Positions 1-47,226 of a stretch of DNA of 48,652 nucleotides are shown piece after piece. The translations under genes were made by a program, and so were the position numbers. The DNA comes from an uncultured Dehalococcoidales bacterium (lineage in GTDB: Bacteria; Chloroflexota; Dehalococcoidia; Dehalococcoidales; CAYFFA01). The notes below the pieces were generated by a model, which searched no databases, was not told the origin of the DNA, and saw nothing but the letters and a program-made list of their open reading frames with translations. The stretch is taken from the NCBI GenBank assembly GCA_964342375.1, contig CAYFFA010000001.1:1-48652 (forward strand), written 5' to 3'. How positions within the stretch are numbered: position 1 is the first letter of the stretch; each line of letters opens with the position of its first letter.

Positions 1-333
1 TTAGAACCCCCCTACCCCCGGTAAAACGTAGAAAAACTGGCCAGTTATGCCCGATAATTGCCACCAAACCCACCACCACCTGCTGGACGATACCCAGCCC
101 TAATAGCTGAGCTGCCCACACCATGGCTGCCCCCTTACCCAAGTCAAAAAGAATCACCGATATGGCAAGCCGCCTAGAGGTCATCCCCCACAGATTGGAT
201 ATGCCCACGTTGCCGGTGCCATATTGTCTGATGTCTATCCCACGGACTCGCTTGGCAACTAAGTAGGCAGTGGGCACTGAGCCCAAAAGATAGGCACCTA
301 TTATTAACAGTACAAACTCAACGACCACAAGCA
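1..333 (-). CDS. plsY: Glycerol-3-phosphate acyltransferase PlsY, partial (C-terminal part lies beyond the left edge); 5' end apparently frameshifted
   Basis: Minus-strand translation of 2..298 reads GAYLLGSVPTAYLVAKRVRGIDIRQYGTGNVGISNLWGM...ILFDLGKGAAMVW...IIGHNWPVFLRFTGGRGVL, the PlsY pattern (GxGNxGxxN, FDxxKG, GHxxPxFLxFxGGxG). It is absent from the ORF track because it runs off the edge. An RBS-like GAAGGGG followed by GTG (333 or 327) opens a different frame, which reads VVELVLLI and then hits TAG at 298-300. Confidence 0.7.
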
Positions 334-387
334 CCCCTTCTGAGATTATTTACCTGCCTTTGTAAGATTTATTGTCTTATCAAAAGG

Positions 388-1239
388 CTATGATTCGACT
401 AGCTTTAGCCCTCGCTGCTTTGCCAGAGCTATAAGTCGCTCTGCTGATTTCAGAGGCACATCGAGACTACCAAGCATCGCCCCAGCGCCATCATCCAAAC
501 CGTGGTAATCACTGCCACCAGTGGTAATAAGATTATGCCTAGTAGCCAGGCCGACCAGAGCGATAGTTTCGTCAGCAGTGTAGCCATTGGAGTAGCTCTC
601 AATGCCTACCAGACCGACCGCCTTTAACTCAACAATCATACCTTCCGAGTCATTGACGGTTAGTGGATGGGCCAATACCGGCAGACCTTTAGCCTGCAAT
701 ATTAGTTCTACCGCTTGCACCGGGGTTGTCTTTTCTCGCTCAACATAGGCGGGGCCATCACGACCTATATACTTGGCGAATGCCTCACCAGACGAAGCGA
801 TATAACCCTTTTCTAACATAGCTTGCGCAATATGAGGACGCCCTATAGCACCACTACCGGCTATTTCCTTTACCCGCTGCCACTCAATATGAACATCGAG
901 CTTCTCCAGCCTGGCAACCATCCCCTGAGCCCGTATCTGCCGGGAAGCGCGCGACCTCTCCAGAGTCCCCAGCATTTCACGGTCTGTATAATCCACAAAG
1001 TAGCCCAGAATATGAACCTCACCGTGAGGAACATCAGTGCTGATTTCAACACCGGGAATAACCTTTAACATGGGGAATGCTTTGGCAGCTTCCAGGGCGG
1101 GAGCAATGCCATTCACAGAGTCATGGTCAGCGATAGCAATGGCGGTTAACCCGAGCTCCGCTGATTTATGGATAATCTCCGCAGGGCTGAATCGACCATC
1201 AGAGGCAGTGGTGTGTATATGAAGATCTACCTCGGACAC
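388..1239 (-). CDS. PHP-domain metal-dependent phosphoesterase (TrpH/YciV-like)
   Basis: 283-aa ORF. The N-terminus VDLHIHTTASDG and later His/Asp motifs (ADHD, HILGYF, LAHP, GGSDYHG) are typical of PHP phosphoesterases. The GTG start overlaps the ymdB stop (TAGTG) and is preceded by GGGAGGTGG. Confidence 0.8.
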   Translation of the reverse strand: MSEVDLHIHTTASDGRFSPAEIIHKSAELGLTAIAIADHDSVNGIAPALEAAKAFPMLKVIPGVEISTDVPHGEVHILGYFVDYTDREMLGTLERSRASRQIRAQGMVARLEKLDVHIEWQRVKEIAGSGAIGRPHIAQAMLEKGYIASSGEAFAKYIGRDGPAYVEREKTTPVQAVELILQAKGLPVLAHPLTVNDSEGMIVELKAVGLVGIESYSNGYTADETIALVGLATRHNLITTGGSDYHGLDDGAGAMLGSLDVPLKSAERLIALAKQRGLKLVES

Positions 1240-2009
1240 TATTCCACCTCCCGGCCTATCCGGTCGATGCTTGTTGTTTTGCCGCTATTCTCATCTACAC
1301 TGAGCAAGACGGCACTAAACATTGTTTTGCCCTTGCCCACGGATAAATGATGCGGCATCATCGTCAGGAAGCGATTGATTACCGCCTCAGCGGCAACGCC
1401 TATTATCGAATCGATCGGCCCGGTCATACCTATATCGGTCACATAGGCAGTACCCTGAGGAAGCACCATGGCATCAACGGTGCCCACATGGGTATGGGTG
1501 CCCAATACAGCACTGACTCGCCCGTCCAAGTATCGCCCCATTGCCACCTTCTCCGAGGTTGCCTCAGCATGAAAATCAACAACTATGACTGACGGCCTGG
1601 GCTCGACCTCAGCCAGCAATTTATCCATAGCTCTAAACGGGCAGTCGAAGTTGCTGATGAAGGTTCTTCCTATCAAATTAACTATCATTGTCTGCTTATT
1701 GATTATATATCCCCTACCTGGCACCCCGGGGGGATAATTTAATGGGCGCAGGATAGGCATCTCACTATCAAGGTGTGGAATAATCTCCTTCTGCGCCCAT
1801 ATGTGATTACCTGAGGTAAGAACATCAACCCCGGCGTCAAATAGTTCATCGGCAGTAGCTAAAGTCAGACCAAAGCCGCCGGCAGCATTCTCGGCGTTAG
1901 CAATAACAAGGCCTAACTCGTATTGCTCCCGCAGGTCCGGCAAATATTTTTGTATTGCCTTCCTACCCGGCCTGCCAACTATATCACCAACTGCTAATAT
2001 CAGCATCAC
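1239..2009 (-). CDS. ymdB: YmdB-family metallophosphoesterase (2',3'-cyclic-nucleotide 2'-phosphodiesterase, TIGR00282-like)
   Basis: 256 aa. LILAVGDIVGRPGR, NAENAAGGFG, TSGNHIW and DFHAEATSEK are the calcineurin-like motifs of YmdB. It lies directly downstream of rny, as in Bacillus. Confidence 0.85.
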   Translation of the reverse strand: MMLILAVGDIVGRPGRKAIQKYLPDLREQYELGLVIANAENAAGGFGLTLATADELFDAGVDVLTSGNHIWAQKEIIPHLDSEMPILRPLNYPPGVPGRGYIINKQTMIVNLIGRTFISNFDCPFRAMDKLLAEVEPRPSVIVVDFHAEATSEKVAMGRYLDGRVSAVLGTHTHVGTVDAMVLPQGTAYVTDIGMTGPIDSIIGVAAEAVINRFLTMMPHHLSVGKGKTMFSAVLLSVDENSGKTTSIDRIGREVE

Positions 2010-2067
2010 TATTCAGAAAAGAATGGCCGATTCATAAGGTATGGATTGCTCTCTCGGCCGATACCGC

Positions 2068-3615
2068 CTATTTAGCATAGCCCACAGCTCTCGTCTCTCT
2101 GACTACGGTAACCTTTATTTGGCCTGGATACGTCAGACCCTCCTCTATCTTCTTGACGATGTCCCGGGCAAGCCTCATTGCTCCTAGGTCATCAAGCTCT
2201 TCCGGCTTGACCAAAATGCGGATTTCACGACCTGCCTGGATAGCATAAGACTTTTCCACCCCCTCGAAGCCAGCGGCGATATCTTCCAACGCGTTCAGGC
2301 GCTTCAAGTAGTTCTCCAGTGATTCACGCCTTGCCCCCGGCCTGGCACCACTGATGGCATCAGCCGCTGAGATGATAAAGCCCCACGTGCTGGTAGTATC
2401 AGTATCGCCATGATGCTCAGCAATACCTTGAACTACTTCAGGAGATTTATCCCATTGCTTAACCAGGTCAGCTCCGATGGCAGCGTGAGTGCCTTCCACC
2501 TCGCGGTCTACCGCCTTACCAAGGTCATGGAGCAACCCGGCCCTCTTAGCTATGGCAACATCGGCCCCCAGTTCGCTGGCAATCATGCCAGCCAGATGGG
2601 CGGTTTCAATGCTGTGCCCCAGGACATTCTGTCCATAGCTAGTGCGATATTTGAGACGACCAAGCAGCTTAATTAACTCGGGGCGCAATCCATGCACCCC
2701 CACCTGGTAGGCTGCCTGCTCTCCTGCACTATAGATGCTGGCATCTACTTCCTCGTTGGTCTTAGCTACTACTTCTTCAATGCGAGCCGGATGTATTCGT
2801 CCGTCAAGGATAAGCTTGGATAGAGCCACCCGAGCCACCTCCCGCCGTACCGAGTCAAAGCTGGACAGGGTGACTGCCCCCGGGGTGTCATCAATTATCA
2901 GGTCGACGCCGGTAGCCTGCTCCAGGGCTCTGATATTACGCCCCTCGCGGCCGATAAGTCGACCCTTCATCTCATCACTGGGAAGAGGCACAACGCTAAC
3001 CGTGGTCTCAGCTACAACCTCAGAGGCGCAACGTTGAATAGCCTGCGATAAAATATCCTGCGCCTTTCTATTAACCTCCTCATTTATCTCAGCTTCCCAC
3101 TCACGAAGGCGCCGTGAGGCTTCCTGTCGCATCTCATCCTCCACGGCCTCCAGCAATGTTTGCTTTGCCTCGTTGCTGGACAGGCCCGAAATGAGCTCCA
3201 GCTGCTTCAACTGCCTATCTCTGACCTCTCCAAGTTGAGCGCGAATAGACGTCACTTCCTTTTCCTTACCAGCCAGGTCTCGCTCCCGCTGCTCCACGCC
3301 CGCTAACTTGCGATCCAATGTTTCCCCTTTTTGAGATAGGCGGTTTTCCTGACGCTGTAGTTCAACACGCCGCTCACGATACTCTGCCTCGGCTGATGTC
3401 CTAGCTTTACCTGCTTCCTCCTTGCTCTGACGAAGCACATTTTGAGACTCATTCTTAGCGTCAGCCATCATTCTGGTCGCTTTTCTCTCGGCAATACGTA
3501 TTTGTCGGTTAAACAACACCCGCCGGGAGAGAAAAAGCGCCATACCGCCAAATATCACGCCTATGATAAAACTGAATAAAATTGCTAATATTCCCTGTAC
3601 TCCCAGATCTCCCAT
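2068..3615 (-). CDS. rny: Ribonuclease Y
   Basis: 515 aa. It has an N-terminal TM helix, a long coiled-coil, a KH domain ([15 protein letters not shown]) and an HD domain ([13 protein letters not shown]...LLHDLGK). Confidence 0.95.
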
Positions 3616-3696
3616 TTTTAACCCCCTTTCCCTAGTAGCTTTCGGGTTAGGCGCAGGTTATTGATAGATGATACTGTTCGCCTTGTTGATTTAACG

Positions 3697-4347
3697 TCAA
3701 GACAAGATGCCATTTTCAAACCTGCCTCCCACTTCCTGCCACATCCGCTTTACGGTGTGATTTATCACCCCATAATTGAAACCACGGTGCTTGAGATATC
3801 CACCTAATCGGCGCTTAAAGCCTTGGTAGTCAGACAGGGGTAAACTACGGGCTTTACCCTGGGCTGCCCGGTAGGCGTTCTCGTCATCATTGACCGTATC
3901 AGCTACCCGGTCTATGATATCATCGGCTACACCCTTCTGCCTCAGCTCCAGCTTAGTTAACCGCTGACTGCGCGGGCTAAATGATTCCCGGTTAGCCTTC
4001 CAGAATTGAGCAAAAGCCGTATCATCCACTAACCCTTGCTCCCTTAGCCTAGCCATCACTGCATCTACACTGCTATCGTTGAAGCCCTGCCGCTGAAGAC
4101 GCTCCCTTACCTCAAGCTCGCTACGAGGTCGATAGCTGAGGTAACGGAGAGCGGCCCCAAGGCAACGGTGGAAGAAGTCAGACCGGTTCAGGTCTTCTGT
4201 CTGACTGGCAGATAGCTCCTGCCCCACACGCAGCCTTTCCTGCACCACCACTTCAGCTTCCAGACCGAAGGCGAACTCGCCATCTATAAATACATTCACC
4301 CGCTCGCTCCGCCCCCTACCGTCACGGATGGCAGTAATCTTCCCCAT
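3697..4347 (-). CDS. recX: Recombination regulator RecX
   Basis: 216 aa, immediately downstream of recA. It shows helical-repeat RecX-type sequence (YLSYRPRSELEVRERLQRQGF..., LELRQKGVADDII). Confidence 0.8.
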   Translation of the reverse strand: MGKITAIRDGRGRSERVNVFIDGEFAFGLEAEVVVQERLRVGQELSASQTEDLNRSDFFHRCLGAALRYLSYRPRSELEVRERLQRQGFNDSSVDAVMARLREQGLVDDTAFAQFWKANRESFSPRSQRLTKLELRQKGVADDIIDRVADTVNDDENAYRAAQGKARSLPLSDYQGFKRRLGGYLKHRGFNYGVINHTVKRMWQEVGGRFENGILS

Positions 4348-4375
4348 CTGCTTGATATACCTCCTTTTTTAAGCC

Positions 4376-4406
4376 AAAAAGGCTGAGGTATAAGCCTCAG
4401 CCTTTT
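4376..4406 (-). terminator. Rho-independent-type hairpin between recA and recX (bidirectional shape)
   Basis: AAAAA-GGCTGAGG-tataag-CCTCAGCC-TTTT. This is an 8-bp perfect stem (4381-4388 / 4395-4402) flanked by A and T runs. On the minus strand the hairpin is followed by TTTTT. Confidence 0.6.
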
Positions 4407-4468
4407 AAATCATTCTGCCTATTTAGCTATTCTGCTTAAAACGACATTAGTCGCTAGCTAGAGAGTTA

Positions 4469-5467
4469 TCAGGTATTATTGGCTGAGGCTCTAATCCGTT
4501 GCTCAATCTCTCCGGCAAGTTCAGGATTCTGCTTCAGGTATTGCTTGGCATTCTCCCTACCCTGCCCCAGGCGAATATCACCATAGGAGAAAAAGGCACC
4601 GGCTTTATTAACCAGCCCCAGCTCTACACCCAGGTCAATAAGATTACTCTCCTTACTTATCCCCTGGCCGAACATGATATCAAACTCAGCAGATCTGAAG
4701 GGAGCGGCAACCTTGTTTTTGACTACCCTGGCCCTGATTTGACTGCCTATTGACTCATTTCCCTGCTTAATTGTCTCGATACGTCTCAGGTCTATCCTAA
4801 CAGAACTATAGAATTTTAACGCCCTGCCACCTGGAGTTACCTCAGGGTTACCGAAGACAATGCCTACCTTCTCCCTCAGCTGGTTGATAAATACTACTGC
4901 TGTTCCCGACCTGCCGATAGCGGCAGCCAGCTTCCTCAGTGCCTGCGACATGAGACGGGCTTGTAAACCAACATGAACGCCCCCCATTTCGCCCTCGATT
5001 TCAGCTTGTGGTACTAGGGCGGCTACACTATCAATCGCTATTATCTCGACAGCCCCACTCCTGACCAATGCCTCGGTAATCTCCAGAGCTTGCTCACCGG
5101 TATCAGGTTGAGAGATGAGCAGGTCATCAATATTGACCCCACAACTGGTAGCGTAGGCAGGGTCTAGAGCATGCTCCACATCAATATAGGCAGCTGTGCC
5201 CCCTTTCTTTTGTGCTTCAGCAATAATATGCTGAGCCAGGGTGGTTTTCCCAGATGACTCAGGACCAAATATCTCCGTAATCCGCCCTCTGGGGATACCA
5301 CCTACACCCAGGGCCAAGTCTAATGCCAGCGAGCCGCTAGGAACAACCTCTACCACCGACGTTGTAGCAGCTTCTCCCAACTTCATAACTGAGCCTTTGC
5401 CAAACCGCTTTTCGATCTGACTGATAGCTAGTTCCAGTGCCTTGTCCTTCTCCGTGGTCATATTCAC
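4469..5467 (-). CDS. recA: Recombinase RecA
   Basis: 332 aa. It has the Walker A motif GPESSGKTT and the characteristic ALDPAYA, [17 protein letters not shown] and [17 protein letters not shown] blocks. Confidence 0.97.
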
Positions 5468-5500
5468 CTGAATCTTATCATAACATAATCATCCCATCAA

Positions 5501-5527
5501 AACAAGCAAATATTTTCATATCTTGTT
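5501..5527 (-). promoter_or_regulatory. Inverted repeat AACAAG-N15-CTTGTT in the recA upstream region (candidate operator)
   Basis: Read on the minus strand, 5501-5506 and 5522-5527 form AACAAGATATGAAAATATTTGCTTGTT. This overlaps a possible TTGTTT-17-TATGAT promoter about 35-60 nt upstream of the recA ATG. It is not a canonical GAAC-N4-GTTC LexA box. Confidence 0.25.
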
Positions 5528-5577
5528 ATCAACTCCATCATTTTTATCCGTCTTATGTAAAACCCAAATCGAGGTAT

Positions 5578-6507
5578 TTACACGTTACCACGTTTTGATT
5601 GCCAGTCTTCATCACCATAGAAACCCAGACCAATGAACCCCGGTCCCATGTGAGTTCCCAGCACCGGCCCAAGTTCAAAGAGGCGTAGTTCATCCCATTC
5701 AAAGCGGTCACGCAGTCCTTTTTCTAATACCGAGGCTGCTTCAAAAACACGGGTATGGGCAATCCAACCACGTAGAGGGGCGCTTCCCTCAATTCGTTTT
5801 GCCACAAACTTCAATATATGTTCTATAGCTCTGGCTATAGTACGTGGTTTGGCTAAGATATGAACCTCTCCTTCATGAAAAGTCAGGACAGGCTTAATCC
5901 CCAATAACGTGCCAACCAGAGCTCTGGCGGCGCCGATTCGCCCTCCTTTCCGGAGGTACTCCAGTGTGTTGAATATGCCAACGACGTTCAGGCATGTGTT
6001 GAGTTCTTCAACGGATACCTTGATTTGAGGTAGCGTCTGTCCCCTTTCAGCTGCCTCAGCGGCCGGAGCGACCAACATCCCCATAGCTATAGAGGACGAA
6101 TCCATAATCTCAATCTGAGCTTGAGGCAGTACATTTTTGGCAGCCAAAGCGGAATTGAGTGTTCCGCTCAATTTACTGGAGATGTGAACGGAGAGAATGG
6201 GATGGCCACGCTGAGCAAGCTCACTGTAAACTTGAGTAAAATCGCCGGCAGAAGGCTGTGAGGTAGCGGGAGAATAGGTGGCTTCAGCCAGCTCTCGATA
6301 TAATCCGCTTACGTAAGGTGAAAATTCGTAGGTGCCTGCTCTTTGATAAAATTCATCATTAGTAATATCTACTCCTTCGGAATAGACCTCGTCTCCGAAG
6401 ATAACCTTAAGCGGCACGACACGGATATCATATTTCTCAATTATTCCTGGTTCAAGGGAAGCAGTGCTATCGGTAACAATTTTAACCTTAGGGGTCAAAC
6501 TTCGCAT
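5578..6507 (-). CDS. DegV-family fatty-acid-binding protein
   Basis: 309 aa. It has KIVTDSTASL at the N-terminus, SSKLSGT, and a C-terminal GTHMGPG-type motif typical of the DegV/EDD fold. Confidence 0.8.
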   Translation of the reverse strand: MRSLTPKVKIVTDSTASLEPGIIEKYDIRVVPLKVIFGDEVYSEGVDITNDEFYQRAGTYEFSPYVSGLYRELAEATYSPATSQPSAGDFTQVYSELAQRGHPILSVHISSKLSGTLNSALAAKNVLPQAQIEIMDSSSIAMGMLVAPAAEAAERGQTLPQIKVSVEELNTCLNVVGIFNTLEYLRKGGRIGAARALVGTLLGIKPVLTFHEGEVHILAKPRTIARAIEHILKFVAKRIEGSAPLRGWIAHTRVFEAASVLEKGLRDRFEWDELRLFELGPVLGTHMGPGFIGLGFYGDEDWQSKRGNV

Positions 6508-6567
6508 TCCTCCTCGATTTTATAGCACCTGAGTCAGCACTATTCTCCGAGCAGTGCAGAGTTATAG

Positions 6568-7314
6568 CTAAACCTGAAAGTCGGCCACCTGAGGTAGCTG
6601 TCGCTTATGAGCACAACCCGCTATCATAGATTCAATTTTCCCCCTTAGCTCACCGGAGGCTTCACCGGCAACCAGGTAGCGGTCGAGCTCCTCATAGCTG
6701 AACCCTAAATCGCCTTCATCTGTTTGGCCCGGCCACAAGCCAGCCGATGCAGGCTTATCAATAATAAGCTGGGGAATGCCCAGAAAGCCGGCTAGCTCTC
6801 TCACCTGTCCTTTGACCAGATTGCCTAGAGGTATGATATCTACCCCACCGTCCCCGTATTTGGTAAAGTACCCTATGGCAAGCTCACTACGGTTGCTCGT
6901 GCCAGCTACCATATAGCCGAGCTGATTGGCAAAGTAGTAAAGGGTTAGCATCCTCAACCTGGCTTTGAGATTAGCTTCAGCTATCCGGCTGGCTGCGGGG
7001 TCAATGCTCTTACCGGGCACCATCTTAAGCAAGATATCAAAAACAGGTTCGAGGACCACCATCTTGGTTGGAATAGAAAACTGGCCAGCCACCGCCTGAG
7101 CATGTTCCATATCCTCCCGGCTACTGTGGCACGGCATAAGCGCCCCGAGCATGCTTTGCGGAAAAGCACGGTGACACAACACCGCCAGCACCGAGGAGTC
7201 GACTCCGCCGCTCATGCCCACCATCACTCCTTTACACCCGCCAAACAAGACCTGATCTTTTATCCACGAGACCAGCTTACCCGCCAGTTGCTCCTGATGC
7301 ATAAAAGTCTCCAT
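6568..7314 (-). CDS. nadE: NH3-dependent NAD+ synthetase
   Basis: 248 aa. It has the PP-loop motif GMSGGVDSSV, then GTSNRSELAIGYFTKYGDGG and KPASAGLWPGQTDE. Confidence 0.9.
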   Translation of the reverse strand: METFMHQEQLAGKLVSWIKDQVLFGGCKGVMVGMSGGVDSSVLAVLCHRAFPQSMLGALMPCHSSREDMEHAQAVAGQFSIPTKMVVLEPVFDILLKMVPGKSIDPAASRIAEANLKARLRMLTLYYFANQLGYMVAGTSNRSELAIGYFTKYGDGGVDIIPLGNLVKGQVRELAGFLGIPQLIIDKPASAGLWPGQTDEGDLGFSYEELDRYLVAGEASGELRGKIESMIAGCAHKRQLPQVADFQV

Positions 7315-7376
7315 TGTAGCACAATGTTGTACGTAGTATACTACCTTATAGTCAACTGGTCAAAAGCAAAAAACCG

Positions 7377-8918
7377 ATGTTAGCCGCAGATATTATCCTC
7401 GAAAATGCCAATGTAATAACCATGGAGCCGGAGCAGCCCACCGCTGAGCTGGTAGCAATCAGGGGCAACCGGATTTTGCTGGTCGGTGGCGATGAAGATT
7501 TGAAGCAAGTTACGGGAGCAAAGAGCAGGATAATCGACTGCCATGGTAAAACGTTGGTACCCGGTTTCAACGATGCCCATTGCCATATCTTCTCTTTCGT
7601 AAGAAAACTGCTCAGTCTCGACTTGAGTCCGTCATCAGTCGGCTCCATTGATGACATAAAGGCAGCCATCCACCGTCGAGCCCAAGACACGCCACCGGGG
7701 GAGTGGCTCATCGGCACCGGTTATAACGAGTTCTATCTCGCCGAAAAGCGCTGTCCGAATCGCCGGGATTTAGATGATGTGGCACCTCGCCACCCGGTAG
7801 TCCTGGCTCACCGCTCCCTGCACGCCTGCGCCCTTAATAGCATGGCGCTTTCCCTGGCTGGTATCACCAGAGAGACCCCAGAACCGCCCGGCGCGCTCAT
7901 TGACCGGGACCACGCCACTGGAGAGCCAACCGGTATCCTGTTTGAGATGCTTAGCTACATCAGAGAAAAGGTTTTGCCCCCTTTATCTGAAGAAGCATTA
8001 ACTGAAGGCATAGCTTCGGCTGATAAGCACTACCTGTCCTGCGGCATTACCTCGTTACAGGAGGCTACCATCAGCAACGACCTTGGCCGGTGGCAGTCCT
8101 TTCATCGGTTTAAAGGCAAACTGAAAAGCCGTCTATCCATAATGTTTGGAGTTGAAGCCTTGAGCCGATTCCAAGCGGCAGGCTTAGCCTCCGGGTATGG
8201 TGATAGTCAGTTGCGCCTGGGCGGGGCGAAGATACTGGTGAGGGAAACCACCGGACAACTGGAGCCGTCACAGCCGGAATTAAACCGGCAGGCACTTGCT
8301 GCCCACATGGCTGGCTATCAGCTAGCCATCCATGCCATTGAGCCGAACACCGTGAAGGCAGCCATCACCGCCCTGGAACATGTCAACAGCCATTCCCCGC
8401 AGAATGGTCAACGACATCGCATAGAGCACTGCTCGGTGTGTCCTCCTCCTCTACTCGAGCGCCTGAGCAAGCTCCATGCAGTCGTCGTTACTCAACCCCC
8501 ATTTCTTTACTATAGCGGGGAAAGATATTTAGCCACTGTGCCGGTCGGTCACCTACCATGGCTATACCGGATTAAGTCCCTGGTTAACAGTGGCTTGATT
8601 GTGGCTGCCAGTTCCGATTCTCCGGTAGTCCCTGATAACCCTTTGGTTGGCATATATGCCGCCGTCACCAGAAAGACCGAATCAGGACGGCAGCTTCTAC
8701 CCGAGGAATGTATCTTAGCCAAACAGGCACTGGCTATGTACACCATAAATGCTGCTTATGCCTCCTTTGAAGAGGATATAAAAGGCTCGATTGCTCCGGG
8801 CAAACTGGCTGATATCGTAGTATTGAGCGATGACCCTGTTAACTCACCCCCGGAGCGGATAAAGGACATCTCGGTGGAGATGACAATTATCAACGGCGAG
8901 GTGGTCTGGGAATCTTGA
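7377..8918 (+). CDS. Amidohydrolase-3 family metal-dependent hydrolase (YtcJ-like)
   Basis: 513 aa. It has GKTLVPGFNDAHCHIF near the N-terminus, HAIE, the RHRIEH motif and SSDSPV near the C-terminus. Confidence 0.8.
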   Translation: MLAADIILENANVITMEPEQPTAELVAIRGNRILLVGGDEDLKQVTGAKSRIIDCHGKTLVPGFNDAHCHIFSFVRKLLSLDLSPSSVGSIDDIKAAIHRRAQDTPPGEWLIGTGYNEFYLAEKRCPNRRDLDDVAPRHPVVLAHRSLHACALNSMALSLAGITRETPEPPGALIDRDHATGEPTGILFEMLSYIREKVLPPLSEEALTEGIASADKHYLSCGITSLQEATISNDLGRWQSFHRFKGKLKSRLSIMFGVEALSRFQAAGLASGYGDSQLRLGGAKILVRETTGQLEPSQPELNRQALAAHMAGYQLAIHAIEPNTVKAAITALEHVNSHSPQNGQRHRIEHCSVCPPPLLERLSKLHAVVVTQPPFLYYSGERYLATVPVGHLPWLYRIKSLVNSGLIVAASSDSPVVPDNPLVGIYAAVTRKTESGRQLLPEECILAKQALAMYTINAAYASFEEDIKGSIAPGKLADIVVLSDDPVNSPPERIKDISVEMTIINGEVVWES

Positions 8919-13960: not shown

Positions 13961-14109
13961 TATTTTAAGAGTACAGAGATGTTAATCGACTTCATTGATG
14001 AGGTGGAGTCTAACACATACGCATCGCAACCTTATTCCCAGATATTGGCCTCAGTGATACTCCTTTCACTGAAGGAGAATTAAAGGTGGGGTTTTTAAGA
14101 GGGGGGGTA

Positions 14110-14493
14110 ATGAAAAGGTTTTTGATACTGGTTACGGCGGCAATAGTAGCTACCAGTCTGGTGACTGGGTGTACGGGAGGAGTTAAGCCCTCTACTGAGT
14201 CGGAGCAAGCCATAAACACCGGCATTAATCAAGAGTTTATTATTGAGCCCGGCTCTAATCCTTCCACCGGCTATAGCTGACAAGAAAGCTACGATGAGAC
14301 CATGCTCGAGCTGGTGGAAAATACATATAAATCGGGTGAGGAGGCAAAACAGGGTGTGGTTGGCGCTGGCGGTACTGACTATTTTCGATTTAAAGCGTTA
14401 AAGACGGTTGAAACTGAGATAATAATGGTCTATAAGCGACCATGGGAAAAGGAGAGCCTAGAGCAAATTGTTTTCACAGTCGATATAGAGTGA
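14110..14493 (+). pseudogene. Peptidase inhibitor I42 (chagasin/ICP family) lipoprotein interrupted by one in-frame TGA
   Basis: A lipoprotein signal is present (MKRFLILVTAAIVATSLVTGC). Track ORFs 14086..14280 and 14302..14493 are in the same frame. Joined, they read ...EPGSNPSTGYS[TGA]QESYDETMLELVE...VVGAGGTDYFRFKA...YKRPWE. This is the I42 pattern NPTTGYxW ... GxGG..xFxF ... RPW, with the TGA (14278-14280) exactly at the conserved Trp. Confidence 0.75.
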
Positions 14494-39286: not shown

Positions 39287-39988
39287 GTGATTAAAGCAAT
39301 ATTCTTTGACTGGTTTGATACCTTAGCCCGTTTTGAACATCCAAGGGAGTAATTACAGAGTCGGGCTCTTCGTGATTTTGGAGTTGAAATAACAGCCGGA
39401 GAACTAGTATCCCCTGTCCTGACTGCTGATAAATATTTCTTCGGAGAGATCGCCCGTTCACCAGTGGGGCGGAGAAATCCCGAGGAACAGGCCGAGGTTT
39501 ATATGCGCTATCATAATATAGTATTAACCGAGGCCGGGGTTAAAGCTGACCAGGAGCTAGTATTTAAGCTGATAAAGAAGGTGCAACAGCTATCTGAAGG
39601 AGCAACCTTCGTCCTCTTTGATGACGTGCTACCAACCATGAAGACATTAAAAGAACAAAAGTTTATTTTGGACTTGCTCACCAATGCCAGCAAGGATATG
39701 ATTTCTATTCACCGCAAACTGGGGCTGGAACCATATCTCAGCTTTATGGTTACATCCTAGGAGGCGGGGGCCGATAAGCCTGATCCTCCCATTTTTCAGG
39801 CGGCGCTGGAGCGAGCCGGGGCAAAGGCTTCAGAAGCAATTCATGTCGGCGACCAGTATAAACAGGATGTGACCGGGGCCAGAGGGGTGGGCATTAAGCC
39901 CGTGCTTATTGACCGTAATAATTTGTATCCCGAAGTCCGCGGCTGCTCCCGAATTTGCAACTCGGCCGAGTTAGCCCAACACCTTTAG
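39287..39988 (+). pseudogene. HAD-superfamily (subfamily IA, REG-2-like) hydrolase with two in-frame stop codons
   Basis: A single frame from GTG 39287 reads VIKAIFFDWFDTLARFEHPRE[TAA 39350-39352]LQSRAL...LDLLTNAS...FMVTS[TAG 39758-39760]EAGADKPDPPIFQAALERAG...IHVGDQYKQDVTGARGVGIKPVLI. All four HAD motifs are present and in order (FDxxDTL, hhhTN, KPDPxIF, GDxxxxDxxGA). Confidence 0.75.
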
Positions 39989-42672: not shown

Positions 42673-42864
42673 ATGTTAGACCCTGCGGTTCATGCAAGTA
42701 TCATATCGGTTGCCGGCGAATGGGCGAAGGTGGTTATTGAAACTACCGAACCCCGCACCAAGCTGAGCAGGGCAAAGGCTACCAGCTTACTGCGCCGCGA
42801 TTTTGAAAGCGCATACAAAGAGCTCGTCATGGCGGTGCAGATACTCGAAAAAGACGATAAATAG
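42673..42864 (+). CDS. Hypothetical small protein (63 aa)
   Basis: A strong RBS AGGAGGAG lies 5 nt upstream of the ATG. I recognised no family. The gene is convergent with the HEPN gene. Confidence 0.5.
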   Translation: MLDPAVHASIISVAGEWAKVVIETTEPRTKLSRAKATSLLRRDFESAYKELVMAVQILEKDDK

Positions 42865-42947
42865 TCTTTCAGGGGCGGGATACTGAAAAGAGAGGCGGCA
42901 TAGAAAGAGCTGATGTCATCTCTTAAACTCCTATACACCTAACTAGC

Positions 42948-43763
42948 CTAGTACTTTATTTTAGCTTCAGTGTCTATGCATTTCACAAGGGTGTCTACTA
43001 TATCTATTGATTCCACCAAATATTTATTGGTGATAGATTTGTAGGTTCCCACCCTTAACGTGTTGTTCTTGACCATTTTCTAGAATTTCTGATTTACCAT
43101 TCCTTTATTATGTATGTGAATGTTCCTAGTTGCTAGAATCTCTGTTACGCTTTCAACCGATACTCCTGAATTATTCAGATTAATCTTGAATTTGCCCTCA
43201 AAATATTTGACAACGTTTGAGAATGAGTCATATTGTAGGTCTTCCACTTCTCTCTCTGCAAAATAGCTTATTATTTGCTTTCGCTCGCCTTGAGCAAGTA
43301 TTTCTTCGACGGTCAATTGTTTACCAGATTTAAGGGCATCAGGACGAGTTAACAATATTTCCCGAACGATATCAACAAGGTATCCTTCAAAGATTGACAC
43401 TAAATAGATTAAGCCAAGTATGCGGACAAGTTCGATAAATTGCCGAAACTTCTTCATTTCCATAGGCACAAATACATCTATATCGGTTAAGTCATCCAGT
43501 TTTTCGCCAAGTTCACCGGTTAGTTTCTCATCAGCTTTGGACAATCTAGATTTTCCATATTTATCAAGGAGGTCACCCATTCGCATCTCAAGTTGGGGTA
43601 ACTCTTTCCTAGCAGCTCGGACTTGTTTCTATAAAATTTTTACTTGCTTACCATACCACTCCTCAGTTGTACCGAGAAAATAGGTAAGCTTCCAGAAGCT
43701 GGAATCAAATGTTCGGGAACTCGCAGTATCTGTCTTACGCTTAAGTTGTTTCTTCTTCGCCAT
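42948..43763 (-). pseudogene. HEPN-domain (Rx4H) Abi/toxin-like protein, RiboL-PSP-HEPN-like, interrupted by two in-frame TAG codons
   Basis: The frame opens at ATG 43763, inside the last 7 codons of mfd and one base out of the mfd frame. It reads MAKKKQLKRK...WYGKQVKIL[TAG 43629-43631]KQVRAARKELPQLEMRMGDLL...IFEGYLVDIVREILL...VTEILATRNIHIHNKGMVNQKF[TAG 43080-43082]KMVKNNTLRVG...DTEAKIKY[TAG 42948-42950]. RNIHIH fits the HEPN Rx4-6H catalytic motif. The block is markedly AT-rich compared with mfd. Confidence 0.6.
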
Positions 43764-46700
43764 TTCGCTTCACCTCCTTATTTAATATGCCCTCTAGCAC
43801 CTCCCGCCACTCTTTCTCACACCGTTTAGAGTTGAGGCGGAGCCGGGTGACGCCTACCTCTATGTCATCCCCGACCGATTCAAGCTTCTCTTTATCAAAC
43901 CGCATCCCCTCGAACAGCCTGAGCACGATTTGGCCGTCCTCGGTAGAGATAGACTCAATACCCGCCTTTGACGCCTGAATCTTGATTCTGAGGGCATACA
44001 GCAGGTTCCCGACCTCCGGCGGAGGGGCGCCAAACCTGTCGTCGAACTCCTGAGCCAGAGCCTCTACATGGTCGGGCGTTTCCATCTTCGCCAGGCTCCG
44101 GTAGAGGCTTAACCTGATGCTGAGGTCGGCTACATAGTCTTCGGGTATATAGGCTCGTAGGGGAAGGTCAATGGTGGGGGGCGGCAAGCGCTTGGTCATT
44201 TTCTCGCCAGCCAGTCTGGATTTTAGCTCCCCCACCGCTTCAGCCAGCAGCCGCGTATAGAGGCTGAAGCCAACGGCGCTTATAAACCCGCTCTGCTTCA
44301 CTCCCAGCAGGTTGCCGGCTCCCCTGATTGCAAGGTCTTTCATGGCAATGCCGAAGCCGGCTCCCATCTCAGTGGTTTCAAATATAGTCCTCAGGCGCTT
44401 CTCCGCGGTGGGGGTCAGGCGTTTCCCTTTCTCATAAAGAAAATAGGCATGGGCGAGGTCGGCGCCGCGCCCGACTCTGCCCCGTAGTTGATACAGCCCG
44501 ATCAGGCCAAATTTATCAGCCTGGTTGACGATGATAGTATTGACATTGGGCATATCCAGTCCCGACTCAATAATAGTCGTGCATACCAGGACATCATTTT
44601 CGCCCCGAGCAAAGTCAGCCATCGCTTTCTCCAGTTCGCCCTCGGGCATCTGACCGTGAGCAACGGCTATCTCCGCCTCGGGCATCAGAGACCGCAGCCT
44701 GCCGGCAACCATGGCTATGCTCTGCTCCCGGTTATGGACAAAGAAGACCTGCCCGTTGTGCTCCAGCTCCCTGAGTATGGCTTCTCTGACCAGCCGGTCA
44801 TTATATTCAGCCACAAAGGTTTTCACGGGCAGGCGTTCTTCAGGGGGAGTTTCCATGGTGCTCATATCCCTCACCCCCACCAGAGACATGTTAAGAGTGC
44901 GGGGTATAGGGGTAGCGCTGAGGGTGAGAACGTCCACCTCCCGCCTCATCTGCTTGAGGTATTCCTTATGGGCTACACCAAAGCGCTGCTCCTCGTCAAT
45001 GATTAATAGCCCCAAGGCTTTGAAGCCTACGTCTTTCTGCAGCAGGCGATGGGTTCCGATACAGATATCCACGGTTCCATCAGCCACTCCGTCAAGGATA
45101 GCCCGCTGCTCTTTTGGCGTCCGAAACCGACTCAAAACCCCAACCTTTACCGGGAAGGCGCGCATCCTCTGGCTGAAGGTAGAGAAGTGTTGTTGAGCCA
45201 AGACTGTGGTCGGCACCAGCACCGCCACCTGCTTGTTGTCCATCACTGCCTTGAAGGCGGCACGGATAGCCACCTCGGTCTTGCCGTAGCCGACATCCCC
45301 GCAGACCAGCCGGTCCATAGGTTTGGATTGCTCCATATCTTCTTTTACATGCTCCTGCACCTCCATCTGGTCAGGGGTCTCAACATAGGGAAAAGAACCC
45401 TCAAGCTCCTGCTGCCATACTGTATCACGGGAAAAGGAAAAGCCGGGGACAACTTCCCGGGCGGCATAAAGGGTTATCAACCCCTGAGCCACGCTCTCCA
45501 CAGACTCCCTGGTTCTCTGCTTGGTCCGCGTCCACTCCTGGGTGCCCAGTCGACTCAATGTGGGGGGCTGTTCACCACCGCCTACATAACGGTCGACACG
45601 GTCTATCTGGTCAATGGGGACATACAGTCTATCACCGGCAGCATACAGCAAGAGCAGATATTCCTTCTCACTCCCGTCAGTCCTCATGCTGGTAACGCCA
45701 GCAAACTTACCAATGCCATGCTCAACATGCACCACATAGTCGCCTGGTGTTATATCGGCAAACAGCTTGTGGCGCGGCACAGGGTGCTTCTTGAGTAACC
45801 GCCGTTGCTTGGCGAAGCCAAAAATCTCGGTATCAGTGAACAGATATGTATCATTATCCATAACCCATCCCTCAGCCAGCGAACCATGGACGAGGGTTAG
45901 CGAACCGGGCGGAGGCGTTTGTTTGACTTCATCGAGGGGCGGGGCAATAATGCCTTCCTCCCCAAGCAGCTCTGATAGCCGGCTTGCCTGATGGCTGGTG
46001 ATGATGAGGCGATTTTTCCGGTTCAGAAGCTGCTTTGCCTTTTTGATGAGTATCGGCAGCTGCCCGGCATATGCAAGAGCGGAAGTGAAGTTTAACTTAT
46101 GCTCCTGACCCTCAGCGACATCCCAGGCGGTAAGCACCAGGCGCCGCCTGTTTTCTATCCCGGTCTCCAGCTCGTCCCAGGTAAAATATGGAGCGGGGAA
46201 ATTATGGGGCAGTTCTCCCTGTTCTATTTGCTCGCCCCGCAACTCGTTGGCTTCAGCTTTCAGGTCTTCCATGGCCGACTCGACATTCCGGGGTTCATCG
46301 ATGACCAGAAGGGCATCCTGAGACAGGTAGCTCAGGATGCTGTCTTTATCGAACAGCGAAGCGTAGAACTGCAGGTTGCGCGGTCTCTGTCCATCGAGCA
46401 GCATAGCCAGTTCCTGTCGAAACTGCTGGCTCGCCTCGGCATTACAGGCAGACAGGTCGACACTGCTAAGAAGTGCCTCCATCTCCGGTTTGTTGCTCAT
46501 CAGTGGGGTCAGCAGTTCTGTGGCGGGACCGATGGTTACTGATGACACTCTGGTTTGTGAGCGCTGGTTCGCCTGGTCAAAGAGGCGAATGCTGTCTATG
46601 GTATTACCGAAGAATTCAAGCCTGGCCGGCAGGTCGCTGGTAGGAGGGTAGATGTCAACGATGCCGCCGCGACGGCTTACAGTACCCGGCATCTCCACTA

Positions 46701-47226
46701 TATTTTCCATTCTATAGCCCATAGCTTCCCATCGGCTCAGCAGGCGGAAGGGATCAACATCCATCCCCAGCTCTACGGTATGGCAGGCAGAGGTGAAATC
46801 ATTATAAGATGCCGTCTTTTGCATAACGGCGGAAGCCGAGGCGACAACTAATGGAGCGTCTGCAGTCGGCTCTATATTGGCTAACGCCGATAGCACCTGG
46901 AGCCGTTCCAATTCAGTGGAGGTATCCGAGGCAACACGCTGGTAGGGCAAAGCATCCGGTTCAGGAAGAAGCTTCACCTGAGAATCGGACCAGGTCGAGA
47001 GTTGTTCATAGAGCTTTTTACTGTTCTCAGGCTGAGCGGTAACCATCAGCACGGGTACCTGCAAACTACGACACAGAGCCGCAATGAGATAGGACTTGGC
47101 GGCATCGAGCACAGCCGCTCTGGTGCTGCCATTTGACTGCTGGAGCTCGGCCACAAGTCGGCGATAGGCGGGCATATCATCAATAAGATGTAATAACTGT
47201 CCCAGGTTCAAGCTCATTTTCCCCAA
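43741..47226 (-). CDS. mfd: Transcription-repair coupling factor
   Basis: 1161 aa. It has a UvrB-homology N-terminus, a CarD/RID domain, superfamily-2 translocase motifs (GDVGYGKTEVA, DEEQRFGV, SATPIPRT) and a TRCF C-terminal domain. Confidence 0.96.
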   Translation of the reverse strand: MGKMSLNLGQLLHLIDDMPAYRRLVAELQQSNGSTRAAVLDAAKSYLIAALCRSLQVPVLMVTAQPENSKKLYEQLSTWSDSQVKLLPEPDALPYQRVASDTSTELERLQVLSALANIEPTADAPLVVASASAVMQKTASYNDFTSACHTVELGMDVDPFRLLSRWEAMGYRMENIVEMPGTVSRRGGIVDIYPPTSDLPARLEFFGNTIDSIRLFDQANQRSQTRVSSVTIGPATELLTPLMSNKPEMEALLSSVDLSACNAEASQQFRQELAMLLDGQRPRNLQFYASLFDKDSILSYLSQDALLVIDEPRNVESAMEDLKAEANELRGEQIEQGELPHNFPAPYFTWDELETGIENRRRLVLTAWDVAEGQEHKLNFTSALAYAGQLPILIKKAKQLLNRKNRLIITSHQASRLSELLGEEGIIAPPLDEVKQTPPPGSLTLVHGSLAEGWVMDNDTYLFTDTEIFGFAKQRRLLKKHPVPRHKLFADITPGDYVVHVEHGIGKFAGVTSMRTDGSEKEYLLLLYAAGDRLYVPIDQIDRVDRYVGGGEQPPTLSRLGTQEWTRTKQRTRESVESVAQGLITLYAAREVVPGFSFSRDTVWQQELEGSFPYVETPDQMEVQEHVKEDMEQSKPMDRLVCGDVGYGKTEVAIRAAFKAVMDNKQVAVLVPTTVLAQQHFSTFSQRMRAFPVKVGVLSRFRTPKEQRAILDGVADGTVDICIGTHRLLQKDVGFKALGLLIIDEEQRFGVAHKEYLKQMRREVDVLTLSATPIPRTLNMSLVGVRDMSTMETPPEERLPVKTFVAEYNDRLVREAILRELEHNGQVFFVHNREQSIAMVAGRLRSLMPEAEIAVAHGQMPEGELEKAMADFARGENDVLVCTTIIESGLDMPNVNTIIVNQADKFGLIGLYQLRGRVGRGADLAHAYFLYEKGKRLTPTAEKRLRTIFETTEMGAGFGIAMKDLAIRGAGNLLGVKQSGFISAVGFSLYTRLLAEAVGELKSRLAGEKMTKRLPPPTIDLPLRAYIPEDYVADLSIRLSLYRSLAKMETPDHVEALAQEFDDRFGAPPPEVGNLLYALRIKIQASKAGIESISTEDGQIVLRLFEGMRFDKEKLESVGDDIEVGVTRLRLNSKRCEKEWREVLEGILNKEVKRNGEEETT

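Follow-up and report, generated by a model that had tools for sequence, protein, structure and literature searches.

The stretch of DNA analysed here, called the window in the following, comprises 48,652 nucleotides (nt) of contig CAYFFA010000001.1 from the metagenome-assembled genome (MAG) of an uncultured Dehalococcoidales bacterium (GCA_964342375.1). Directly downstream of mfd, the gene for the transcription-repair coupling factor, it carries an AT-rich gene which is very likely a decaying pseudogene of a HEPN-like protein family. The copy in the window is interrupted by three in-frame TAG codons, it cannot yield the full protein under the genetic code of the organism, and it evolves neutrally. 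Its family is uncharacterised and stand-alone, and it forms a lineage-restricted branch of a large family of proteins of approximately 260 amino acids (aa). An earlier, preliminary description of the locus had pointed to an AT-rich block downstream of mfd, to an ATG inside the mfd tail, to the two internal TAG codons and to the motif ATRNIHIHNKG, and all of these are present (Table 1). The GC content is 0.35–0.40 across positions 42850–43600 compared to 0.55–0.59 in mfd; calculated for whole genes it amounts to 38% for the HEPN-like gene and 55% for mfd. Direct or inverted repeats flanking the AT-rich block were searched for and none were found, and there is no insertion scar.

The single continuous frame recognised in the preliminary description stands, whereas its length has to be corrected from 272 to 274 codons and the number of premature stops from two to three. 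The TAG at 42950–42948, which had been taken as the terminator, stands where the relatives have a sense codon: the window shows the tail KY-TAG-A-S-TAG while intact relatives end with KY-L-A-S-stop, and the ancestral stop is therefore the TAG at 42941–42939. This third premature TAG costs only the final three residues. The start of the gene overlaps with the end of mfd by 23 nt; its AGGAGG Shine-Dalgarno sequence is kept in one of the two near-identical strains described below (L022; loci outside the window are given as L numbers) and reads AGGGGG in the other (L001). The Mfd protein of the window has a C-terminal extension of about 11 residues (…KEVKRNGEEETT; 43741–43776, minus strand) that is not found in its relatives, whose Mfd proteins align to it only up to residue 1150–1159, because mfd reads through the Shine-Dalgarno sequence and the start of the HEPN-like gene.

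Table 1. Positions of the HEPN-like gene, its parts and its neighbours in the window (residues and codons are numbered from the ATG of the HEPN-like gene).
Feature	Position	Strand	Remarks
HEPN-like pseudogene	42939..43763	minus	274 codons and ancestral TAG stop; interrupted by three in-frame TAGs
Start ATG of HEPN-like gene	43763-43761	minus	within the last 7 mfd codons
Shine-Dalgarno AGGAGG of HEPN-like gene	43773..43778	minus	precedes the ATG by 8 nt; within the coding end of mfd
Premature TAG 1	43629..43631	minus	codon 45; orthologues AAG, AGG, GAG, GGG or GCG; L033 AAG
Premature TAG 2	43080..43082	minus	codon 228, 10 codons past Rx4H; orthologues CAA, CTG, CTA, AAG or CGC; L033 CAA
Premature TAG 3	42948..42950	minus	codon 272; Leu/Phe of the family C-terminal tail KY[LF]A[SK]; TTG in L033
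N-terminal region	43347..43724	minus	predicted as two very long helices (residues 14-71, 76-139), hairpin/coiled coil; AlphaFold2 pLDDT 82-95
C-terminal all-alpha domain	42948..43478	minus	residues 96-272; bears the HEPN-like motif; shared with about 4,800 clusters
Rx4H motif R213-N-I-H-I-H218 within ATRNIHIHNKG	43110..43127	minus	R213 43127-43125, H218 43112-43110
mfd (transcription-repair coupling factor)	43741..47226	minus	intact, 1161 aa
63-aa open reading frame	42673..42864	plus	convergent; conserved small protein, not a HEPN partner

That the pieces separated by the TAG codons belong to one gene, and are not unrelated open reading frames (ORFs), had been proposed before and is borne out by the intact relatives. 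A search with the conceptual read-through product as query returned 61 homologues, about 50 of which are full length (269–308 aa, 44–71% identity). These full-length homologues are intact, metagenomic and typically 271 aa long, and they align end to end and gap-free across both internal TAGs; the closest intact relative is L033 with 71% identity. Joining the pieces extends the match to the Pfam family PF18735 (HEPN_RiboL-PSP) from residues 71–166 for the middle ORF to residues 116–232 for the complete protein, so that it spans TAG 2. The piece following TAG 2 had been supposed to supply the missing last helix, and it does correspond to the conserved last helix of the family (residues 246–272), which ranks among the core helices with the best prediction and the highest conservation. 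All intact orthologues have ordinary sense codons at the three TAG sites, and these codons vary from one orthologue to another. Intact family pairs are under purifying selection, with nonsynonymous to synonymous rate ratios (omega) of 0.13–0.33. A contig scan of the GTDB species genomes revealed only two distant relatives, and the close family was not found in 60 genomes of the same order.

Two further orthologues carry a lesion or a possible lesion of their own. In L002 (identical to L013), an otherwise intact orthologue with 61% identity, codon 2 is TAG (5183–5188; ATG TAG GAG AAG), which is either an independent TAG lesion or a sign of a shifted start. In L023/L027 (2796–3404), the orthologue located behind an aminoacyl-tRNA synthetase gene changes frame after residue ~197, and gene calling yields two products, one of 202 aa and one of 58 aa. 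This is a further inactivation that arose independently within the family; the next gene on the downstream side is HicB-like.

The three lesions of the window are shared with two near-identical strains, L001 (ENA ERZ27286513) and L022 (JGI Ga0187827_10024749), the assemblies of which are independent of the MAG of the window, and TAG at the three sites is confined to this strain group. Over the 825 nt of the gene, the L001 copy shows 11 differences to that of the window. The L022 contig contains mfd, encoding a protein with 97% amino-acid identity to that of the window, the HEPN-like gene and the start of the convergent 63-aa ORF, and its HEPN-like gene has suffered additional damage, namely a CAA to TAA change in codon 40 and two deletions, one of 100 bp and one of 1 bp. 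The source MAG of the window is fragmented and incomplete (695 kb, 46 contigs, 64% complete), which might suggest that the TAG codons are assembly or consensus artefacts in an intact gene; this is extremely improbable, as three independent assemblies obtained in different projects and with different assemblers agree on all three TAGs but differ at 11–21 other positions.

Each difference among these three copies (window, L001 and L022) was assigned to a lineage, yielding 19 nonsynonymous and 6 synonymous changes. This corresponds to an omega of ~0.86 which is consistent with omega = 1; values of omega ≤ 0.3 and omega ≤ 0.15 are rejected with p = 0.014 and p = 5e-5, respectively. For mfd, the window/L022 pair shows a synonymous divergence (dS) of 0.034 and an omega of 0.39. 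The pseudogene has accumulated ~0.029 changes per site over all sites, which equals the local synonymous rate of mfd. In the family tree, the terminal branch of the window copy has a length of 0.27 and that of its intact sister L033 a length of 0.16. In the ancestor of the strain group, nonsense substitutions would have turned AAG (codon 45), CAA/CAG (codon 228) and TTG (codon 272) into TAG and so inactivated the gene; neutral drift would have followed, during which the sister strain L022 gained the TAA and the two frame-breaking deletions.

Some observations do not sit easily with decay. All three ancestral lesions are TAG, although one-step mutation predicts TAA in 41–51% and TAG in 27–40% of the cases, so that the chance of obtaining TAG three times out of three is p ~0.03–0.06, and the unrelated lineage L002 likewise shows a TAG (codon 2). 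Moreover, the ancestral branch gained three stops but no indel, and the window and L001 branches alone have a nonsynonymous to synonymous ratio of 6:3, too few changes to exclude residual constraint. The all-TAG pattern is a mild oddity that can be explained by chance, and it is broken by the later TAA in L022.

The same pattern could speak for the suggestion, raised in the preliminary description, that the gene is conditionally expressed by amber read-through: the gene would be alive, with the three UAG codons read by a suppressor tRNA, as pyrrolysine or by leaky termination, and a dangerous RNase would be made only at trace or stress-induced levels. Besides the somewhat higher than expected share of TAG, the absence of a frameshift in the window and in L001 and the independent codon-2 TAG in L002, the retained Shine-Dalgarno sequence and start codon speak for it. 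Nevertheless, we regard it as very improbable. TAG acts as a normal stop throughout the genome: stops of long ORFs in the 695-kb MAG are TAA in 172, TAG in 168 and TGA in 156 cases, and the in-frame distances to the next stop have the same length distribution after TAG, TAA and TGA. Aragorn detected 12 tRNAs, none of them with a CUA anticodon, a result that is weak alone in a genome that is only 64% complete and to that extent leaves a gap in the case for decay; the best PylS_Cterm match reaches 16.8 bits compared to a cut-off of 178 in the same 64% complete genome, and no PylS was found. Furthermore, the TAG sites are not conserved outside the strain group and selection on the gene is relaxed; L022 combines the same TAGs with a TAA and two deletions, three successive near-cognate events would result in a negligible amount of product, and in-frame TAA and TGA codons occur in other genes of the window as well. 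On contig C30 of the MAG (minus strand, 84–5826), four same-frame ORFs split by single TAGs were suspected to represent a further interrupted gene, and they turned out to be four ordinary genes encoding a phosphoglycerate-mutase-like (apgM-like) protein, an aspartokinase, a TPR protein and gyrA; this arrangement looks like chance operon packing.

A use of the truncated product is highly improbable as well. The 168-aa middle ORF (43586–43080, residues 59–227) is initiated by an ATG and keeps the Rx4H motif, and gene callers predicted it in L001, where it matches PF18735 weakly, so that it might act as a short RNase or as a dominant-negative remnant. However, there is no Shine-Dalgarno sequence upstream of the ATG at 43586, and the product would be devoid of the C-terminal helix (residues 246–272) and of half of the N-terminal hairpin. 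Nonsynonymous strain differences occur inside the 168-aa ORF as well, and L022 has lost 100 bp of it.

Decay by nonsense mutation is not restricted to the HEPN-like gene. The window contains a gene for a HAD-IA hydrolase (39287–39988, plus strand) with an in-frame TAA (codon 22) and an in-frame TAG (codon 157) and without any indel, for which L036 (2615–3316) has an intact copy of 233 aa at the syntenic place, and a gene for a chagasin/I42-type inhibitor lipoprotein (14086–14493, plus strand) that one in-frame TGA interrupts (…NPSTGYS*QES…). Because these HAD and I42 genes are broken by nonsense codons too, the HEPN-like gene seems to share in a wider loss of genes through point mutations, and its loss would fit a genome-wide decay of genes by nonsense mutation in the source organism. 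Of the two options originally put forward, a recently inactivated gene is the one favoured by the data, whereas the cause assumed for it, counter-selection of an unneutralised toxin, is not needed in a genome in which other genes are nonsense-broken.

The assignment of the family to the HEPN proteins, already proposed from the motif, is supported by conservation and by profile similarity. The motif residues T212-R-N-I-H-x-H-N219 are among the invariant or near-invariant positions in the close relatives. For more distant ones, a profile of the C-terminal domain (residues 96–273) was used, which collected 4,811 clusters with an E-value of 1e-3 or lower, and 1,477 when the limit was set to 1e-10; proteins of 250–280 aa with the domain at the same C-terminal position make up most of them. 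In an alignment of 62 distant proteins sharing 18–46% identity with the window protein, no columns except those of R213 and H218 are invariant, and these two are so also in relatives of 20–28% identity; D131, Y178, N214 and G221 are at least 90% conserved. An Rx4H motif with Asn following the Arg is the catalytic signature of HEPN proteins, which are defined by Rx4-6H with Asn, Asp or His as the polar residue after the Arg, and across 50 close and 62 distant members R213 and H218 are invariant with N214 conserved to at least 90%. The only recurrent Pfam match is PF18735, obtained for 31 of the 50 close members (E ≤ 0.01, best 2e-5) and for 6 of the 62 distant ones (best 1.2e-6). In the PADLOC defence library, the sole recurrent matches of the distant members are RTasHEPN (6/62) and ApeA (2/62), with a best E of 1e-6. 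The profile similarities, all below threshold, are exclusively to HEPN models. AlphaFold2 predicts an all-alpha structure with a mean predicted local distance difference test score (pLDDT) of 80.8 and a predicted template modelling score (pTM) of 0.75 for the full protein and a pLDDT of 74.6 for the domain alone; the second long helix of the N-terminal region (76–139) continues into the C-terminal domain. Judged by its sequence, the family appears to be HEPN-like and closest to PF18735, without being a member of it.

Several results weigh against this assignment. The window protein scores 25.1 bits with PF18735 (E = 2e-5), below the gathering threshold of 28.4 bits, and no close member outscored it. 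Foldseek searches of the PDB retrieved generic helical bundles only, with best E-values of 0.18 for the full-length model and 1.0 for the C-terminal domain, and no HEPN entry among the top 50. An RNase or defence function is something we infer for the members of the family from their sequences. A profile search of PDB sequences yielded coiled coils only, NCBIfam and PHROGs contributed nothing useful for the family, PADLOC gave no match for the window protein itself, and PF18735 failed to match three of the distant relatives (L006, L007 and L009). In BFVD, one uncharacterised Siphoviridae protein was found (E 0.02, TM 0.66, 23% identity).

These results leave room for a family of proteins which are not nucleases, in which the Arg/His pair would have another role, such as ligand or protein binding in a structural or regulatory coiled-coil protein working with Mfd or the translation apparatus, and in which the weak HEPN matches would reflect nothing but a shared helical-bundle shape. 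The lack of a profile match at a curated threshold, the lack of a HEPN structure among the Foldseek results, the three distant relatives without a PF18735 match and the repeated position of the gene just behind housekeeping genes (mfd, class-II aminoacyl-tRNA synthetase) are in line with such a role. On the other side, the sole two residues that are invariant at ~20% identity are an Arg and a His spaced as Rx4H with an Asn after the Arg, and each recurring weak profile match, in two independent libraries, is to a HEPN model. Moreover, one member of the family belongs to a defence island that also encodes a STAND NTPase and an integrase, another has an AbiV HEPN gene nearby and a further one is phage-encoded, and the family is patchy and often pseudogenised as defence genes are. 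We consider a non-nuclease role unlikely, though it deserves to be kept in mind, and an RNase function of the intact members, as suggested by their sequences, rather probable. The intact members would then be metal-independent HEPN-type RNases which may act as dimers with a single active site built from two Rx4H motifs. The hairpin of long helices might mediate this dimerisation and/or the sensing of a trigger, and the proteins may stay latent without an antitoxin until their RNA cleavage is set off, for example by stress or an infecting phage.

The position behind mfd is an old one. On the same strand and directly upstream of the HEPN-like gene, mfd is present in the window, L022, L002/L013, L003–L005, L014, L018, L033, L034 and, at a contig edge, L001. 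All mfd-linked copies form one clade in the maximum-likelihood tree (support 100/99), which also includes L011, the upstream side of which is cut off, and the Mfd proteins of this clade have diverged to 63–70% identity. Because the linked copies are monophyletic and their mfd genes have diverged, the placement behind mfd happened once and was then inherited. The preliminary description had envisaged a toxin gene grafted onto mfd, which as a recent event is incompatible with an adjacency that is ancestral to a whole clade with Mfd identities down to 63%. In one clade of Chloroflexota, the gene would accordingly have been placed once, co-directionally and directly behind mfd, and passed on vertically. 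The GC content at third codon positions (GC3) of the HEPN-like gene is 0.36–0.45 in every lineage compared to 0.51–0.78 for mfd, with the values 0.36 and 0.78 in L003; for the mfd-linked copies of the window, L002, L003, L018 and L022 the range is 0.36–0.42. The gene shows no amelioration of its GC3 despite apparently vertical co-inheritance with mfd.

A promoter scan revealed no credible promoter for the HEPN-like gene, and a terminator scan found no terminator between it and the convergent 63-aa ORF. With the start codon located within mfd, the gene is most simply taken to be transcribed from mfd; in the genome of the window the gene has its own Shine-Dalgarno sequence but no room for a promoter of its own, and it would probably be transcribed by read-through from mfd. 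A literature search found no connection between HEPN proteins and Mfd; in the single paper mentioning both terms, MFD is the name of a strain. It is conceivable that the mfd-linked branch is functionally coupled to transcription-repair coupling, for instance as an RNase clearing nascent transcripts that are set free as Mfd removes stalled RNA polymerase or as a sensor of transcription stress, and that the triple-TAG allele is throttled by read-through, but we regard this combination as very doubtful. Its first part could be accommodated, given an adjacency that is kept down to 63% Mfd identity, with the GC3 of the gene staying foreign. The evidence speaks against the second part, a read-through-throttled allele.

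Outside the mfd-linked clade, the surroundings vary. The copies in L027 and L030 are located directly behind a class-II aminoacyl-tRNA synthetase gene, overlapping with it in L030, the L029 copy shares an island with the genes of a STAND-type NTPase and an integrase, and the L031 copy stands alone among metabolic genes. Downstream neighbours differ at every locus examined, and neighbours across loci include mfd, aminoacyl-tRNA synthetase, nitroreductase and ABC transporter genes. That no MNT nucleotidyltransferase or antitoxin-like partner accompanies the gene in the window had been noticed before, and this holds more widely: across more than 10 loci neither an MNT nucleotidyltransferase nor another conserved partner was found, and mfd itself is conserved within one clade only. 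Among the individual neighbourhoods, L030 contains an AbiV-type HEPN gene (6736–7404) two genes downstream of the family member, and in L029 (1277–5015) the upstream side encodes a tyrosine integrase together with a SLFN/NB-ARC-like STAND NTPase of 875 aa. Two distant homologues with 26–32% identity have further neighbours: in a Segetibacter MAG (L007), a DUF6932 protein is encoded directly downstream (6583–7149, E = 4e-29), and in a genome of the same order (L009), a 294-aa protein containing …LIDPPGY… is encoded directly upstream (2241–3125).

The convergent 63-aa ORF, which had been pointed out as the only neighbour of the putative toxin gene, is a real conserved gene. It has 21 homologues with 58–95% identity, seemingly restricted to Chloroflexota, and no match in Pfam, NCBIfam or PADLOC. 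A role as antitoxin was rejected, as it occurs without the HEPN-like gene in L035 (6001–6192) and L036 (6001–6192). L036 shares the gene order fabD-nusB-acpP-HAD-rSAM-mscS-ORF63 with the window, and in the slot beyond ORF63 (6192–8300) it carries a HicA/HicB toxin-antitoxin pair and small ORFs and not the HEPN-like gene and mfd; this slot appears to be a variable spot.

The locus is one more gene killed by nonsense mutations in an organism that is evidently losing genes, a fairly ordinary case of gene decay, and the puzzle of recoding or of a toxin grafted onto mfd is removed. The wider family comprises about 4,800 clusters (at 50% identity) of partner-less proteins of ~260 aa; they occur in different phyla, and at least one phage encodes such a protein too. 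The family is barely covered by Pfam, NCBIfam and PADLOC. If its members are solo HEPN RNases, they would represent a sizeable unannotated addition to the single-protein nucleases of defence and stress response. Within the mfd-linked clade, alleles that are intact and alleles that have decayed form a natural series, and the clade exemplifies how a foreign base composition is kept through long vertical inheritance.

Compared to known systems, the family combines features of several HEPN groups. Similar to the HEPN-MNT toxin-antitoxin modules of type II/VII, it shows a small HEPN RNase toxin-like protein with Rx4H encoded by frequently pseudogenised accessory genes; unlike these modules it has no adjacent MNT, and the protein is twice the size of a minimal HEPN toxin. 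RTasHEPN, associated with defence reverse transcriptases, and ApeA are similar through the weak PADLOC matches of distant members, but there is no reverse transcriptase nearby and the protein of the window has no PADLOC match. The Ribo L-PSP-HEPN proteins are bacterial, are fused to endoRNase L-PSP or encoded in an operon with ParB, and are distantly related to AbiD/AbiF (Anantharaman et al. 2013, PMC3710099). Positions 33–151 of their Pfam model align to residues 116–232 of the window protein, and both have the conserved Rx4H motif with a polar residue after the Arg and an all-alpha domain, which for the window protein is predicted. In contrast to these proteins, the window protein stays below the gathering threshold of the model and most of its distant relatives have no match, it has no L-PSP domain, ParB is absent among the neighbours at the loci examined, and its family adds an N-terminal long-helix hairpin of ~100 residues. 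HepS ("HEPN solo") is a tetrameric anticodon nuclease that is encoded in the Gifsy-1 prophage of Salmonella and acts by abortive infection; it is a single HEPN-domain protein without antitoxin that is presumed to be sensor and effector in one and to be constitutively made and latent (PMC13043305). The family described here likewise consists of a single protein without a dedicated partner gene. It differs from HepS, to which it is likened by description only, in that HepS is prophage-borne, whereas the present family is chromosomal, follows housekeeping genes and starts with a coiled-coil region at its N-terminus. The contexts that point to phage defence, namely the island with integrase and STAND NTPase, the AbiV-type HEPN neighbour and the phage contig, are circumstantial, and by analogy HepS may serve as a working model for the intact members of the family.

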